Notes: generated by a model from the letters alone, not told the origin. 64,000 bases of DNA from Candidatus Bathyarchaeota archaeon (GCA_963832745.1 CAWHVC010000001.1:608001-672000), one strand, 5' to 3'; shown: positions 47,617-54,117, numbered from the stretch's first letter. Numbers and translations are program-made.

Positions 47617-48834
47617 TTACTTTTGGTAGTATACGTCATTACCACTTTGACTAGCTGTGTTGCCTGAAACTTTGCCTCCAGACGAATCAAAACTGCCGTT
47701 CCCAACATACACACCACCGCCATAATTTGCCGTGTTACCAGAAATCACACCACCACTCATATTGAACTCATCATCACTGCACACACCGCCACCAAGATTA
47801 CCTGCTGTATTGTTAGAAATCACACCGCCAGACATCTTAAAAGCACTAAACATAAAATAGTTAAGCACACCACCACCCTTATCCCATGCAACATTATCAG
47901 AAATCACACCACCACTCATACTAACAGTACCATAAAAATTGTATACACCACCACCAACGCTGGCTGTGTTGCCACAAATAACTCCACCATCTAAACTAAC
48001 TATACTCCACCTGTTAAACACGCCACCACCCCTAAACTCGGCAGTGTTACCAGAAATTTCACCACCAATCATACTAAAATTAAAAGCATTAAACACGCCA
48101 CCACCACCCAAACTAACCTCGTCATGATTATACACGACACTACTATTACCTACTGTGTTGCCAGTAATTTTGCCGCCAGTCATTTCAAACGTGCCATAGT
48201 TAAGTACGCCGCCCCCACCAATGTAAGCTGTGTTGCTAGAGATTTCACCACCAATCATACTAAAATTTCCTAAATTTACCACGCCACCACCCCACTCTCC
48301 ATTAGGCGTCATATAATCCTTAGGCATAGTGTTATTACAAATCACACCACTATACAATATTAATGCACCATCAAAATCGACAAATACCCCGCTACCATAA
48401 ACACCCTTTTCATGGGTCACAACAACACCATCAAGTCGCAACACACCATCAGTCTCAACAATGATAGCGCTCTGATTATTTGCACCAATCAACTTGTAAA
48501 ACCCATTCGCTATATTGTTGCTTGTTAGGGTGATGTTTTTGTTTGTTGGAATGATAAATGGTTTTGTAAGTTGGATATCGCTGTCAAGAGTGATAACGGC
48601 GGATTTTGCATTGTTATTAACTGCCGCTCTTAGTTCAGTTTCAGACGTAGTTGTTATAAAGAGCGTTTCAGGAGTTTTGGTCTTAAAAGAAAAAGCACCA
48701 TTAAACACCAAAAATAAACAAGAAAGAACTAAGACTATGATGAACATTAGAGAAACAAAAAGCGAAACCTTTCTTCTGCCACTACTATGAATAGCGTGCA
48801 AATTAAATTTGAACCTAACATTTTTCACACTCAT
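47617..48834 (-). CDS. Membrane-anchored adhesin-like beta-helix protein with GGGV.N repeats
   Basis: N-terminal TM, about 8 repeats of GGGV.N...F.M.GG.IS.NTA. Confidence 0.8.
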   Translation of the reverse strand: MSVKNVRFKFNLHAIHSSGRRKVSLFVSLMFIIVLVLSCLFLVFNGAFSFKTKTPETLFITTTSETELRAAVNNNAKSAVITLDSDIQLTKPFIIPTNKNITLTSNNIANGFYKLIGANNQSAIIVETDGVLRLDGVVVTHEKGVYGSGVFVDFDGALILYSGVICNNTMPKDYMTPNGEWGGGVVNLGNFSMIGGEISSNTAYIGGGGVLNYGTFEMTGGKITGNTVGNSSVVYNHDEVSLGGGGVFNAFNFSMIGGEISGNTAEFRGGGVFNRWSIVSLDGGVICGNTASVGGGVYNFYGTVSMSGGVISDNVAWDKGGGVLNYFMFSAFKMSGGVISNNTAGNLGGGVCSDDEFNMSGGVISGNTANYGGGVYVGNGSFDSSGGKVSGNTASQSGNDVYYQK

Positions 48835-49820: not shown

Positions 49821-49888
49821 TGGCTGAAAAACACGCCATTAACATGTTGAAAAACAGTAGAAAAGAAGAAGGCTGAAAAACAGCCGAT

Positions 49889-51394
49889 TTACATGCCTTG
49901 TTTAAGACGCCGATAAGTAACGTAGTCAACGTATTCTACAAACGGGTTTTCAGCCAAAAATTTGACGTTGACTTTCTGGCGACTTCGTTTATCAAGTATC
50001 TGACTTGTTGCCCGCAGCACGTATGCGTCGCTTCCTGCACCTGAACCGTAACTTGCCACAAGGATGCGGTCATCAGGTTTTGCAATGTCCAAAATCGCTG
50101 CTAAACCGACAAGGGAAGCGCCTGAGTAAGTGTTGCCGAATTTAGTCATTTGAATTGCAGGCATGAACTGTTCTTCTTTGAAACCGAGGTCTTTGGCGAT
50201 GCGTACTGGGAAACTGGGGTTTGGCTGGTGAGGCACAAAGTAAGTGAAGTCCATAGGCTTCATGTTGCATTTTTCCATGAGTTTACTTGCGGATTTTCGC
50301 ACGTGCTTGTGGTATGCTGGGTCACCTGTGAATCTGCCGCCGTGCATTGGGTAAGGTTCGCCGTCGCGTCGCCAGAAGTCTGGAGTGTCTGAGGTGCAAC
50401 TGTACCAGCCTTCAACTTCAGCGATAACGTCCTTTTTACCGAAAATAAAAGCTGCTCCGCCGTAACCGACGAAAGCGTCAAGTTCGCCGCCGGGGCATCC
50501 ACGTGGTGCAGCTTGAGAATTGTCAGCGCCGATAACCATAGCGTAGTCGATGCCTGAACGGGGATAACTTACTAAAGCACAGGCGTCTTTGAACATGCTT
50601 GAAGCTGCTTTACAGGCAAATTCTGTATCTACTGCGTCAACGCCTTGCAAGTCACCGTCTTGTTCGCCAAGATTTAGCACTTGGGCAACTTTAGCTGCGA
50701 TTGGTTTAACCGCGTACGGGTTAGATTCTGAGCCTGCATAAATTTTGCCTACCCACGAACTGTCAAGTCCCGAGTGAATTAATGCAAGTTTTCCAGCTTC
50801 TACGGCTGCAGTAACAGAGTCTTCATCTATGAAGGGTACTGCACGTTCGATACCGCCGTCCTTTATGCGGAAACGTGAACTGTAAACGCCATAGCCAACT
50901 ATGCCGGGTAACTCGTAGTCTTTGGTTGGCTGAATTACTTTGTATTCTTGATGCGGATAATACTCGTCTGCCAAGGTGAACGCTAAAGAGATTGTTGGGA
51001 CAACTTCGTTTTTCCCGACAGAATAGCGTCGGCGGAACCGTGGAGTTACTTCTCTGCCTTCTAAACTTGCCAAGTCAAGGTCACCGCTATTTAACAGTTG
51101 ATCAGTTATCCTTGCGGGCACACGGATTTTTCCGTCATGAAAACTAACCATGCCATAAACGAAACGGTCAAGCTTCATGAACTTGTTAGTTGGTTCATCA
51201 ATTAACGTGCAAAGTTCAAGTTTACCTTTCTCATAGAAAAGGTCAACGTTGTCCATTTTGCCGTAGCTTTTTCTGCCACATTTACCGCAGTAGTCGCGTA
51301 CTTCAAAATATTCTTTGCCGCAAATTTGGCAGCGGCTTGCACGTAAACGGTCACCAAGATAAGATACTCTACGTTCTATTGGTTCACTGCTCAA
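49889..51394 (-). CDS. Hydroxymethylglutaryl-CoA synthase with fused N-terminal DUF35 (Zn-ribbon/OB-fold) domain
   Basis: CQICG...CGKC Zn ribbon, then DEDSVT, GSESNPYAVKP, EFACK, DFWRR, PHQPN, GNTYSG, SYGSGAGSD. Confidence 0.92.
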   Translation of the reverse strand: MSSEPIERRVSYLGDRLRASRCQICGKEYFEVRDYCGKCGRKSYGKMDNVDLFYEKGKLELCTLIDEPTNKFMKLDRFVYGMVSFHDGKIRVPARITDQLLNSGDLDLASLEGREVTPRFRRRYSVGKNEVVPTISLAFTLADEYYPHQEYKVIQPTKDYELPGIVGYGVYSSRFRIKDGGIERAVPFIDEDSVTAAVEAGKLALIHSGLDSSWVGKIYAGSESNPYAVKPIAAKVAQVLNLGEQDGDLQGVDAVDTEFACKAASSMFKDACALVSYPRSGIDYAMVIGADNSQAAPRGCPGGELDAFVGYGGAAFIFGKKDVIAEVEGWYSCTSDTPDFWRRDGEPYPMHGGRFTGDPAYHKHVRKSASKLMEKCNMKPMDFTYFVPHQPNPSFPVRIAKDLGFKEEQFMPAIQMTKFGNTYSGASLVGLAAILDIAKPDDRILVASYGSGAGSDAYVLRATSQILDKRSRQKVNVKFLAENPFVEYVDYVTYRRLKQGM

Positions 51395-51399
51395 TTGTT

Positions 51400-52599
51400 T
51401 TATTCTCTCCCTAAAATTGTTGCATACGCTTTAGTGCCGAAACCTTCAAACTCCAACGAGCCGCCAAGTTTGGGAACGGCGCCGTCAATGGTTACTTGAC
51501 GTTGATCAGCTTTTCCGGTTAATTGACGGAAGATTTCGTAAATTTGTGCTCCACCAGTTGCACCCAATGGGTTGCCGTCAGCTTTTAAACCGCCATCCAT
51601 GTTAACGTACAATTCTTTGCCGTCAATTTCGTAGCAGCCTTTGCTGTTTGGATATGAGTCAGCTATGCTTTTCCAGGCAGTTCCAGCAGTGCAGTACCCT
51701 AAGTCTTCAAGAGAAACCATTTCCATCATGGTGGATTGGTCGTTAACTTCCCAAAGCTTGATGTCCCAAGGTGACAGTTTGCTGGTTTGAAGGGCTTTTT
51801 TCATGGCGATTTGTGTCGCAACAAAATAGCTTAACTCGTCTCGAGCTGAATAGTCAAGATAATCTGTTGCCGAGCCACAACCGTAAATATACACGGGGTT
51901 TGCGCCCATCTTTTTGGCGACTTCTTCACTTGTAAGAATCAAAGCCGCTGCACCATCAGTAACCGGAGCAAAATCAAATAACCCTAAAGCTTTGTTTGCA
52001 GCTTTCCGCGAACTTAACACACTTTCCAAACTGATTTTACGTTGATACTGCGCATAAGGGTTTTTTGAGCCGTTAGCATGATTCTTGATTGCCACTTGTG
52101 CTAAAGCATTGTAAAGTTTTTCAAGGTTTTCACCATTTATACCGTGCTTTTTGATGTAAGCACGAAGCATAAGTTCATGGTTTGCCTCGGGCGTTCCCCC
52201 TGCGTAATAACTCCAAGGGTCTTCAAGCAGCATAAGGTCATCACGGATTTTATCCCAGCGGTCAGTCATCTTTTCAATACCGCCGACTAGAACGGTACTG
52301 TAAACGCCTGCTTGTATGGCGTGGCATGCAGTTTTTAATGCAGCACTAAAAGACCTTGTTACTTCCATGGGAACGTGAAGCTCAGTTAATTCAGAAAGAA
52401 AACCTTCTTCTAAACCAAGCTTGTTGGTGATTGGCAAAAAACAGTCAGACATGTAGCATGCTTCTAAATTTTTGCGTTCAAGATTGCATTCGTTTGAGGC
52501 TGCAAGCCAGGCTTCTTCTATTAGTTTTTCTGGCTCTTTGCCGTAATGTTCTCCAAACTTTGTTCGGCCAACAGCAACTATTACGGGACGATTCTGCAT
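51400..52599 (-). CDS. Thiolase-family protein (archaeal acetyl-CoA acetyltransferase-like) with degenerate active site
   Basis: GRTKFGE, VLVGGIEKMTD, KNHANGSKNPYAQ, DGAAA, GGLKADGNPLGATG, QLTGKA..RQV. Confidence 0.88.
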   Translation of the reverse strand: MQNRPVIVAVGRTKFGEHYGKEPEKLIEEAWLAASNECNLERKNLEACYMSDCFLPITNKLGLEEGFLSELTELHVPMEVTRSFSAALKTACHAIQAGVYSTVLVGGIEKMTDRWDKIRDDLMLLEDPWSYYAGGTPEANHELMLRAYIKKHGINGENLEKLYNALAQVAIKNHANGSKNPYAQYQRKISLESVLSSRKAANKALGLFDFAPVTDGAAALILTSEEVAKKMGANPVYIYGCGSATDYLDYSARDELSYFVATQIAMKKALQTSKLSPWDIKLWEVNDQSTMMEMVSLEDLGYCTAGTAWKSIADSYPNSKGCYEIDGKELYVNMDGGLKADGNPLGATGGAQIYEIFRQLTGKADQRQVTIDGAVPKLGGSLEFEGFGTKAYATILGRE

Positions 52600-52716
52600 A
52601 ACTTGTCTTCTTCCCTTGATTAATAGCAGTACAAATTTTCTAAAAAGACTATTAAATATTTGCCATATTTACCAAGTTTAAACCTGAAAAATACAGCTAG
52701 CAAGCCCTAAACCGTT

Positions 52717-54117
52717 TTAGGCATGATTATGGTTAGTTATCTCGTTTTCAATGATTTTTTCACGTAAGTTTTTGATTAATTCTTGCAATTTTTGGCTTAA
52801 CTCTACAGGATACACTTCAGCTTCAGTTAGCAGCTTATGCTTTTCTGGAAGCTTGGCAAGGTTTTCAGCGGCAAAATCCTTAATTTGAGTCAACGACGGC
52901 AAAGTGTAAGTTAATTTGCCCTCAGACATAACCTTAACAAGCAACGGTTCAGCATCCACCCTTTCAGAAGCCAACGCAATAACATCCCGCACGTAATTGC
53001 CTTCATCATCCTTGTAACGGTAAACTTGTTTGCGACCAGGCAAAGTTAACTTGTCAGTGCTTAGTTTCATGATAGGCGAATAAACATTTGGCGCCGTCAA
53101 GGTTTCGCACAGTTTATAGATAACATCAAGATAAGGCTTGTCAGAAGAAGTCCCCATTTTGGTGCCTACACCAAAAGAGTCAATTTTTGCGCCTTTACTA
53201 AGTAGTTCAGCAATGCGAAATTCTTCCAAGTCACCGCTAACAAAGATTTTAACGTATCCCAAATCGTTGTCGTCAAGGATTTTTCTGATTTTTTTGCTGG
53301 TTTCCGCTAAATCTCCGCTGTCCAACCTGACGCCGCCGAGCCTGAACCCTTTCGCTTCAAGCTCCTTAGCTACAATGACTGCTTTTTCCAAGCCTGCAAT
53401 GTCATTGTAAGTATCAATCAGCAGCGTGGATTTGTCGGGGAAGGTTTTGGCGAATGCACGGAAAGCGTCAAGCTCTTTTGGGTAAGACATTATGAAGGAG
53501 TGCGCCATGGTTCCAAAGACGGGGATGTCGTAAGCCATGCCTGCAAGCACGTTGGATGTTCCTTTGCAGCCGGCGATGTAGCTGCTACGTGCTACTTTCA
53601 TCCCTGCATCTATGCCCTGTTCTCGGCGTAAACCGAATTCGATTACAGTTTTGCCTTTTGCGGCGTGTATGACGCGGCTGGCTTTTGTTGACATGGTAGT
53701 TTGTAGGTTAACGGTGTTTAGAACGAATGTTTCAACAATTTGGGCTTCAATAATTGGCGCAGTAATGCGGACTAAGGGTTCGTTGGGGAAAGCAACGGTG
53801 CCTTCGGGGACTGCCCAAACGTCGCCTGTGAATTTGAAGTTTCGCAGGTAATCAAGAAACTGCTGATTGAAACCTTGCCGTTTTAGGTAGGCGAGATGCT
53901 GCTCAGTGAATTTGATGTTTTGCAGGTAAAGCAGGATTTGTTCCAACCCGGTGAATAGGAAGTAGGAACGGTTTTCAGGCAGACGCCTAATAAACAAATC
54001 AAACGTGGCGGGTTCAAAGTTTTTGTTGTCAAAATACGCCGCGCACATTGTTAATTCGTAAAAGTCTGTAAAGAGGCTCATGTCTTCTTCGTTATAGGCG
54101 CCAAGAAACGGATTCAT
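52717..54117 (-). CDS. pncB: Nicotinate phosphoribosyltransferase
   Basis: TDFYELTM, EFGLRR, GTMAHS, LIDTY, VRLDSGD, FGVGT. Confidence 0.93.
   Translation of the reverse strand: MNPFLGAYNEEDMSLFTDFYELTMCAAYFDNKNFEPATFDLFIRRLPENRSYFLFTGLEQILLYLQNIKFTEQHLAYLKRQGFNQQFLDYLRNFKFTGDVWAVPEGTVAFPNEPLVRITAPIIEAQIVETFVLNTVNLQTTMSTKASRVIHAAKGKTVIEFGLRREQGIDAGMKVARSSYIAGCKGTSNVLAGMAYDIPVFGTMAHSFIMSYPKELDAFRAFAKTFPDKSTLLIDTYNDIAGLEKAVIVAKELEAKGFRLGGVRLDSGDLAETSKKIRKILDDNDLGYVKIFVSGDLEEFRIAELLSKGAKIDSFGVGTKMGTSSDKPYLDVIYKLCETLTAPNVYSPIMKLSTDKLTLPGRKQVYRYKDDEGNYVRDVIALASERVDAEPLLVKVMSEGKLTYTLPSLTQIKDFAAENLAKLPEKHKLLTEAEVYPVELSQKLQELIKNLREKIIENEITNHNHA

Follow-up and report, generated by a model that had tools for sequence, protein, structure and literature searches.

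Why should an archaeon keep, next to its 3-hydroxy-3-methylglutaryl-coenzyme A (HMG-CoA) synthase, a thiolase devoid of all the residues used in thiolase catalysis? The question is raised by a 64,000-nucleotide stretch of DNA from Candidatus Bathyarchaeota archaeon (GCA_963832745.1, CAWHVC010000001.1:608001-672000), here called the window, which corresponds to G000:C1:608001-672000 of the source genome (G000; 3.02 Mb, 5 contigs, 99% complete). Two genes of the minus strand are concerned: pthl, coding for a 399-residue thiolase-fold protein lacking the catalytic residues (51400..52599), and, downstream of it, a gene starting with TTG and coding for a 501-residue DUF35-HMG-CoA synthase fusion (49889..51394). 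Archaeal thiolase, HMG-CoA synthase and DUF35 protein reportedly form a complex channelling acetoacetyl-coenzyme A (acetoacetyl-CoA), as told in a 2018 study by Vogeli and coworkers. The rationale given for the complex is thermodynamic, the endergonic thiolase step being drawn forward by the exergonic synthase step via a shared coenzyme A (CoA) site, and the assembly is regarded as the way by which nearly all archaea enter isoprenoid lipid synthesis. We favour, with a probability of about 0.6, the reading that pthl is an obligate, non-catalytic partner of the fusion, and that acetoacetyl-CoA is supplied by a separate thiolase/DUF35 pair. A role as scaffold or in the CoA site, already proposed in the preliminary description of the locus, is the one best supported by the data, namely by strict co-inheritance, purifying selection, and a predicted contact with DUF35.

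All the catalytic residues of a thiolase are lost in pthl, that is the nucleophile Cys, both His and the second Cys. The motif strings PMEVTRSFSAAL, EVNDQS and GNPLGATG are found at residues 77, 284 and 342, respectively. In HMMER alignments to archaeal thiolases of known structure (7yvy_A, E 7e-45; 6esq_A, E 4.6e-40) the position of the nucleophile Cys is taken by T81, that of the His of HDxF by N286, that of the second (acid/base) Cys by Q288, and that of the His of GHP by N343. The strand preceding the nucleophile elbow is four residues shorter than in the canonical thiolase encoded by the same genome. The missing nucleophile, the gap of about four residues and the two altered motifs, all pointed out in the preliminary description, are thereby confirmed. 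The protein is otherwise a thiolase in fold: both Thiolase_N and Thiolase_C_1 Pfam domains score above cut-off, scores against the NCBIfam models NF004720 (270 bits, cut-off 420) and NF053570 (205.8 bits, cut-off 600) being below the family thresholds. An AlphaFold2 model built from 76 sequences (confidence score pLDDT 91.9, predicted template modelling score 0.93) displays the five-layer thiolase fold, and the best Foldseek match is the thiolase of Methanothermococcus thermolithotrophicus in the 6ESQ complex (6esq_A; template modelling score 0.89, E 1.4e-34, 28% identity). In the model a strand (78-81) is followed by a helix (84-96), and T81 sits at the strand-helix elbow. The Cys residues of SDC (C53) and TACH (C92), which might have replaced the nucleophile, are off its position in sequence register.

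The losses are not peculiar to the window. Catalytic residues are missing in 21/21 full-length pthl orthologues read from their loci, all featuring Y/N/C-D-Q/P-S and G-N/S-P motifs, and such identical losses are not due to chance. Over 27 pthl sequences, position 81 is T in 19, M in 4, A in 2, N and S in one each; the HDCF equivalent is YDQS in 20, NDQS in 6 and CDPS in 1; the GHx His is replaced by N in 26 and by S in one. R82, D287, S289, T290, E383 and E385 are invariant in the same set, and Q288 and N343 are found in 26/27 sequences. Comparison of 22 clade members with 54 other thiolases identified A-to-R82, F-to-S289, N-to-E383 and G-to-E385 as clade-specific invariant changes, the last two located in the C-terminal NxGG loop; S130, E138, E142 and I149 are further changes of this type.

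The synthase partner is intact, and carries DUF35 at its N-terminus, as the preliminary description had it. GSES is found at residue 221, EFACK at 258, PHQPN at 388 and GNTYS at 420, and the protein scores 368.4 bits against the archaeal HMG-CoA synthase family NF003274 (cut-off 244). The synthase domain (approximately residues 160-501; 49889..50917, minus strand) matches over residues 183-495 the synthase chain of 6ESQ (6esq_I, E 5e-76). The Glu-Cys-His-Asn tetrad (E223, C261, H389, N421) is intact, and its columns are invariant in 30/30 aligned homologues. The DUF35 domain (approximately residues 1-140; 50975..51394, minus strand) is made up by a zinc ribbon, the Cys set of which is complete (C22, C25, C36, C39), and an oligonucleotide/oligosaccharide-binding fold. 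Pfam evidence for this domain is weak (zf-ChsH2, 21.1 bits, cut-off 23.2); residues 17-96 match the DUF35 chain of 6ESQ (6esq_E, E 6e-7), and hhalign aligned the N-terminus to free DUF35 proteins over 104 columns (probability 98.3%, E 1.9e-14). All four ribbon Cys are present in pthl-partnered fusions; in 4/5 fused DUF35 domains outside the pthl clade (loci L027-L030) only three of the four are found (C..C...C.VEG).

Synthases associated with pthl are set apart by a 4-residue insertion. At fusion residues 295-306 (50476-50511 in the window) the sequence AAPRGCPGGELD aligns to AA----PGDALD. The insertion, PRGC in the window fusion and PRG/N-x in the other pthl-partnered synthases, is present in every one aligned; it is missing in the 6ESQ synthase and in five aligned synthases whose thiolase partners fall outside the pthl clade. 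On alignment grounds, the insertion may denote co-adaptation of the two proteins.

The two genes are inherited together. Matches to pthl with at least 54% identity were found in 22 of the 121 Bathyarchaeia genomes sampled (the source genome, G037, and 20 of the 23 other members of the source genome's order), all remaining matches being at or below 43%. Similarly, in a library of representatives at 50% identity, the pthl clade comes down to fragments and a single full-length entry (64% identity), the next match lying at 44%. Within the order, pthl was detected at E 1e-100 or better in 71/81 sampled genomes (57/64 among high-quality ones), and a full-length fused synthase (65-92% identity) in exactly these 71 genomes, being absent from all 10 genomes lacking pthl. 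The gene pthl lies directly upstream of the fused synthase gene in 69/71 genomes; the two exceptions, G128 and G137, have a pthl truncated at a contig end and the synthase gene on another contig.

Both genes are under purifying selection. The ratio of nonsynonymous to synonymous substitution rates (dN/dS), calculated on stop-to-stop frames with a few upstream codons included, is 0.030-0.104 for pthl (5/10 pairs, dS being saturated in the other five) and 0.038-0.098 for the synthase (7/10 pairs, dS being saturated in the other three). Across 14 genomes, identity to the window proteins is 56-91% for pthl and 67-92% for the synthase; that of the canonical thiolase is 64-94%, one of the 14 being a different paralogue at 47%. 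These ratios and identity ranges indicate that pthl is a maintained gene, evolving only slightly faster than its active relatives.

A complex formed by one copy each of fusion and pthl was predicted with a score of 0.79 (best of three controls, 0.00), passing a mark reached by 58/80 solved complexes and 2/110 mismatched pairs. At least 93% of contacts are shared between runs, partner pLDDT being at least 91. The confident contacts all join the DUF35 domain (residues 9-137, initiator uncounted) to pthl residues 116-150, 201-204 and 249-256. The clade-specific, invariant S130, E138, E142 and I149 lie in or beside this predicted interface, and would fit a surface able to tell fused from free DUF35 apart. 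The pass may reflect the likeness to the solved 6ESQ complex; what the model suggests is that the DUF35-binding surface of pthl looks preserved, binding itself not being implied.

Where acetoacetyl-CoA may come from is indicated by the rest of the genome. Two thiolase-like genes were found in G000, pthl and a canonical thiolase gene (G000:C2:305860-307008; 495 bits, above the NF004720 cut-off), which features CEAACGS, HDCF and GHPVGATG. This is followed by the only free DUF35 gene of the genome, the pair (G000:C2:305860-307414) being located on a contig other than that of pthl. Second-thiolase loci fetched from pthl-bearing genomes are alike, ExACxS, HDCF, GHPVGATG and a downstream DUF35 gene being found in 14/14. 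A thiolase scoring above the NF004720 cut-off is encoded by 63/71 pthl-bearing genomes, and two of the 71 have canonical-type matches below it (G159, with contig-end fragments, and G170, where a thiolase of 352 bits adjoins a second synthase-like gene). The additional source of acetoacetyl-CoA, which a dead thiolase had been taken to imply, is thus accounted for, and the data are explained without an acetoacetate-CoA ligase or transferase, neither of which was searched for. For a beta-oxidation source, one weak 3HCDH_N match only was obtained (28 bits, E 2.4e-6).

The preliminary description had considered, as an alternative to a further source, a different chemistry at the entry to isoprenoid synthesis. 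This is not supported, the synthase tetrad being intact, HMG-CoA reductase being present in G000, and no carboxylase supplying malonyl-CoA having been found there: searches for carboxyltransferase (PF01039) and biotin carboxylase (PF02785) in this 99% complete genome gave no match, and a malonyl-CoA-dependent route (NphT7-like or decarboxylase) was set aside on this basis. The fusion is the only HMG-CoA synthase found in G000; no second synthase, of the mvaS type, was detected by tblastn with the G044 protein. A TIGR01835 search of G000 also gave no match, though hmmscan with this model assigns 60 bits to the fused synthase; such genome-wide family searches are accordingly less sensitive than they seem, and blank outcomes are to be read with this caution.

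Genomes of the order lacking pthl are informative in this respect. G130 and G134 carry a classical, unfused synthase gene beside the canonical thiolase gene. In five genomes of family f2 (G014, G044, G050, G158 and G166; 95-98% complete) a 457-residue mvaS-type synthase is found in its place, scoring about 200 + 67 bits with TIGR01835; the G044 protein exceeds the cut-offs of PF01154 and PF08540. HMG-CoA reductase was found in G014, G044, G050 and G166, the f2 genomes covered by that search. In the same four genomes one canonical thiolase is the only thiolase match, followed by a DUF35 gene at the G044 locus; G158 has two thiolase matches, the best being a 284-residue fragment at a contig end. 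Since pthl and fused synthase have been lost together and the canonical thiolase retained, the latter evidently suffices to feed the pathway in those genomes. The f2 genera document a wholesale exchange of HMG-CoA synthase type inside one order. The f2 loci examined (L039-L046; an example of the mvaS/eukaryote-type gene is L040:1483-2853) represent five genera, and no archaeal complex-type synthase is found in them.

Further variation was observed in single genomes. G122 (family f32, 98% complete, 20 contigs) encodes an HMG-CoA reductase (264 bits) and has four thiolase matches; HMG-CoA synthase of neither type was found in it with the queries used. A second pair is present besides the pthl operon at G170:C1:27501-29661 and G177:C4:38687-40850, formed by a thiolase gene (345-352 bits, below cut-off) and a 472-residue synthase-like gene only 32% identical to the fusion. 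Two clusters of fused synthases (P0328 and P0352, 80-83% identity) are named after Methanocella sp. and Candidatus Acidoferrales bacterium, and are probably mis-binned contigs.

The order of events can be read from relatives of the fusion. Fused DUF35-synthases 44-52% identical to that of the window occur outside the pthl clade in six sampled genomes (G060, G108, G006, G081, G004 and G003), and at four loci (L027, L028, L029 and L031) Cys, HDCF and GHP are all preserved in the thiolase adjoining the fusion. In a quick maximum-likelihood tree (IQ-TREE, 21 pthl sequences), pthl forms one clade (100 in the approximate likelihood-ratio test SH-aLRT, stem 0.84), nested (98) with active thiolases adjoining fused synthases, the canonical thiolase clade lying in the other half of the tree. 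Tree and active operon thiolases together indicate that the fusion came first, followed by a single inactivation of the operon thiolase, accompanied by a burst of change. The thiolase beside the fused synthase at L030 (G004:C2:187405-191562) also lacks the nucleophile Cys and has an identical 4-residue gap; it features HDAT for HDCF and VEG for GGT in the C-terminal loop, keeps both His, and sits on a long branch. It may be an intermediate, or a case of parallel inactivation. G081, in which the thiolase beside a fused synthase looked truncated, was evaluated as a second dead-thiolase case and rejected, the N-terminal part of the sequence being made up of masked or undetermined bases, with HDCF and GHP intact.

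Taken as a non-catalytic partner of the fusion, pthl would descend from the working thiolase of the archaeal thiolase/HMG-CoA synthase/DUF35 complex. DUF35 would have been fused to the N-terminus of the synthase at a first step; at a second one, the operon thiolase would have been deprived of both Cys (nucleophile and acid/base) and both His in an ancestor common to one order of Bathyarchaeia. The protein would have been kept because the synthase needs a partner, would still dock on the DUF35 domain and, judging from analogous complexes of solved structure, would probably complete the multimer as well as the CoA chamber formed where thiolase and synthase meet. Acetoacetyl-CoA would be made by the only intact thiolase of the genome, which has a free DUF35 of its own, and would reach the synthase as a free intermediate.

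Several observations weigh against this picture. If acetoacetyl-CoA diffuses freely, the thermodynamic coupling that characterises the complex is forfeited. The 1:1 model features no confident contact between pthl and the catalytic domain of the synthase. Conservation in pthl is highest in the loops of the former active site, mean column entropy over 27 sequences being 0.47 vs. 1.04 in the rest of the protein (0.73 at the predicted DUF35 interface), and invariant columns accounting for 46% of the loops vs. 24% elsewhere. Such strict retention of a remodelled pocket would not be required of a pure scaffold, yet the same loops also belong to the core of the fold. Lastly, pthl is the only thiolase-like gene found in 6/71 genomes, four of which are 95-100% complete (G082, G114, G026 and G020), the others being G132 (69%) and G141 (59%). 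Free DUF35 was not found in the four near-complete genomes either, weak PF01796 matches falling only inside the fusion. The four belong to scattered genera, the sisters of which hold the canonical thiolase, and about two misses are expected from incompleteness alone; assembly gaps are the probable reason why the gene is missing in them.

The conserved loops bear on a different role, tentatively considered here, in which pthl is a non-catalytic, ligand-binding subunit. Its polar pocket would bind acetoacetyl-CoA, HMG-CoA or CoA without cleaving it, and hand the ligand to the synthase via the CoA chamber; in a variant of the same idea, pthl would be a metabolite sensor regulating the synthase. 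Invariance or near invariance of R82, Q288, S289, N343, E383 and E385 in the most conserved part of the protein is in line with this, as is the co-adaptation suggested by the insertion in the synthase. A precedent is provided by TbSLP, a thiolase-like protein without the Cys, crystallised with acetoacetyl-CoA and malonyl-CoA according to the titles of entries 5ab6 and 5ab7. R82 could, however, equally form with E383 and E385 salt bridges plugging the pocket, and loop conservation can be structural. More specifically, pthl might act as a receptor, capturing free acetoacetyl-CoA in the shared CoA chamber, shielding it from thiolysis and passing it to the synthase, a possibility which, judged from sequence data, we hold with similar reserve. 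If so, a channelling enzyme would have been turned into a substrate-delivery subunit. A bolder sub-case would be that the complex of pthl and synthase makes HMG-CoA without a conventional thiolase in those four near-complete genomes for which searches gave no canonical one.

It is doubtful that pthl has become a Cys-independent enzyme, such as a retro-aldolase of the Ltp2/Sal type or a decarboxylase, acting on a CoA thioester beside the synthase. The Ltp2 and Sal aldolases, as described in PMC12329534, have the thiolase fold, lack the usual Cys pair, carry Tyr for the His of HDCF (YDHF, YDCY) and bind DUF35; altered catalytic residues in a thiolase fold are found in TbSLP, the trypanosomal SCP2-thiolase-like protein, as well. 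Tyr occupies the same position in 20/27 pthl orthologues (YDQS), and conservation of the pocket is strong. The Tyr that would have to act in catalysis is itself variable, being N286 in the window protein and its genus, and C in one orthologue; position 81 varies too (T/N/S/M/A), and the third residue of the motif is Q in pthl, not H or C as in the aldolase motifs that the source reports. The DUF35-bearing partner of pthl is a synthase, unlike the hydratase partner given there for the aldolases, and neither a hydratase partner nor genes of the steroid catabolic type are found nearby. Malonyl-CoA would not be available for a decarboxylative route, because neither carboxyltransferase nor biotin carboxylase was found in G000. 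Foldseek ranks Ltp2 (6ok1_C) 40th, the 6ESQ thiolase being first.

Thiolases are dimers, and candidate heterodimers of pthl and canonical thiolase would bring an active subunit into the synthase complex, and so keep channelling. Occurrence of a thiolase above cut-off in 63/71 pthl-bearing genomes would allow it. The two proteins are only 34% identical and fall into different halves of the tree, and the canonical thiolase comes with a DUF35 of its own and is still found where neither pthl nor fused synthase is encoded; we regard such mixed dimers as improbable. That pthl is still a thiolase working with another nucleophile, e.g. C48, C53 or C92, is very improbable: C48 is invariant (22/22 rows) and C92 nearly so (21/22 rows) within the clade, but canonical thiolases have hydrophobic residues at all three positions, neither the two His nor the acid/base Cys are left in pthl, its oxyanion loop has been altered, and in related complexes replacement of the HDxF His by A or Y alone abolished activity, as reported in PMC12960953.

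The non-catalytic partner seen in pthl can be compared with known systems. The 6ESQ complex is formed by the same three modules with the same fold, encoded by adjacent genes, and its thiolase is the best structural match of pthl. It differs in that the window thiolase lacks any catalytic residue, DUF35 is fused to the synthase, and the active thiolase is a separate paralogue encoded elsewhere with its own DUF35. As the thiolase site is dead and the active thiolase is elsewhere, channelling of acetoacetyl-CoA inside the complex cannot work as described for 6ESQ.

Assemblies of thiolase, synthase-like and DUF35 proteins with one dead subunit are known in bacteria. In the Friedel-Crafts acyltransferases PhlABC (PpATase) and MucABC (SmaATase), according to PMC12960953, the synthase-like subunit lacks the E-C-H-N tetrad and is nonetheless retained, the thiolase-like subunit keeping its Cys; similarly, the synthase-like subunit of the P. 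fluorescens ACAT/HMGS-DUF35 complex has lost the tetrad and is still retained. The same source reports that the thiolase-like MucB is insoluble alone, that assembly is needed for activity, and that the interfacial CoA chamber persists. The P. fluorescens system resembles the window pair also in having a synthase-DUF35 fusion protein; DUF35 is N-terminal in the window fusion, as established by alignments, and the name given to the other in the source is 'HMGS-DUF35'. The locus had been described as the mirror image of PhlABC, and this is borne out: the synthase-like subunit is dead there, the thiolase here, and the window complex, unlike the acyltransferases, stays in primary (mevalonate) metabolism.

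The occurrence of several thiolase/DUF35 pairs per genome has been noted in archaea by a 2024 preprint (10.1101/2024.07.05.601840), and the passages of that work consulted mention no synthase with a dead partner. A dead thiolase paired with HMG-CoA synthase in Bathyarchaeia is not described in the literature searched, which omits most subscription journals; related cases may be found among the 1,030 bacterial loci mined in PMC12960953, the supplements of which are outside that literature. In an entire order of Bathyarchaeia, a lineage abundant in sediments and soils, the complex retains its architecture with the thiolase half switched off. The system is therefore a natural test of what a thiolase subunit contributes beyond catalysis, and a primary-metabolism counterpart to PhlABC and MucABC, the acyltransferases with a dead subunit. 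Caution is also called for in annotation: pthl genes are publicly labelled acetyl-CoA C-acetyltransferase, and metabolic reconstructions would count in consequence a thiolase unable to work.

As to the layout of the locus, pthl and the fusion gene resemble, from their spacing and signals, one coupled bicistronic unit. A 5-nucleotide spacer (51395..51399, minus strand) separates the stop codon of pthl from the TTG start of the fusion, and a ribosome-binding-like string, GGGAGAG (51405-51411, minus strand), is found within the 3' end of pthl, just upstream of the fusion. Upstream of pthl is an A/T-rich intergenic region of 117 nucleotides, a putative promoter (52600..52716, minus strand); the fusion stop codon is followed by a hairpin (GGCTG-TTTTT-CAGCC) and a T-rich tract, a putative terminator (49845..49888, minus strand). 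The gene upstream of pthl codes for nicotinate phosphoribosyltransferase, and ends at 52717. Other neighbours are unrelated, and include genes for an ATP-binding cassette ATPase, a protein of the pyruvate:ferredoxin oxidoreductase type, and a secreted repeat protein. The latter, encoded at 47617-48834 (minus strand), is 405 residues long and without a Pfam match, and features an N-terminal hydrophobic segment and many repeats of the GGGV..N type.

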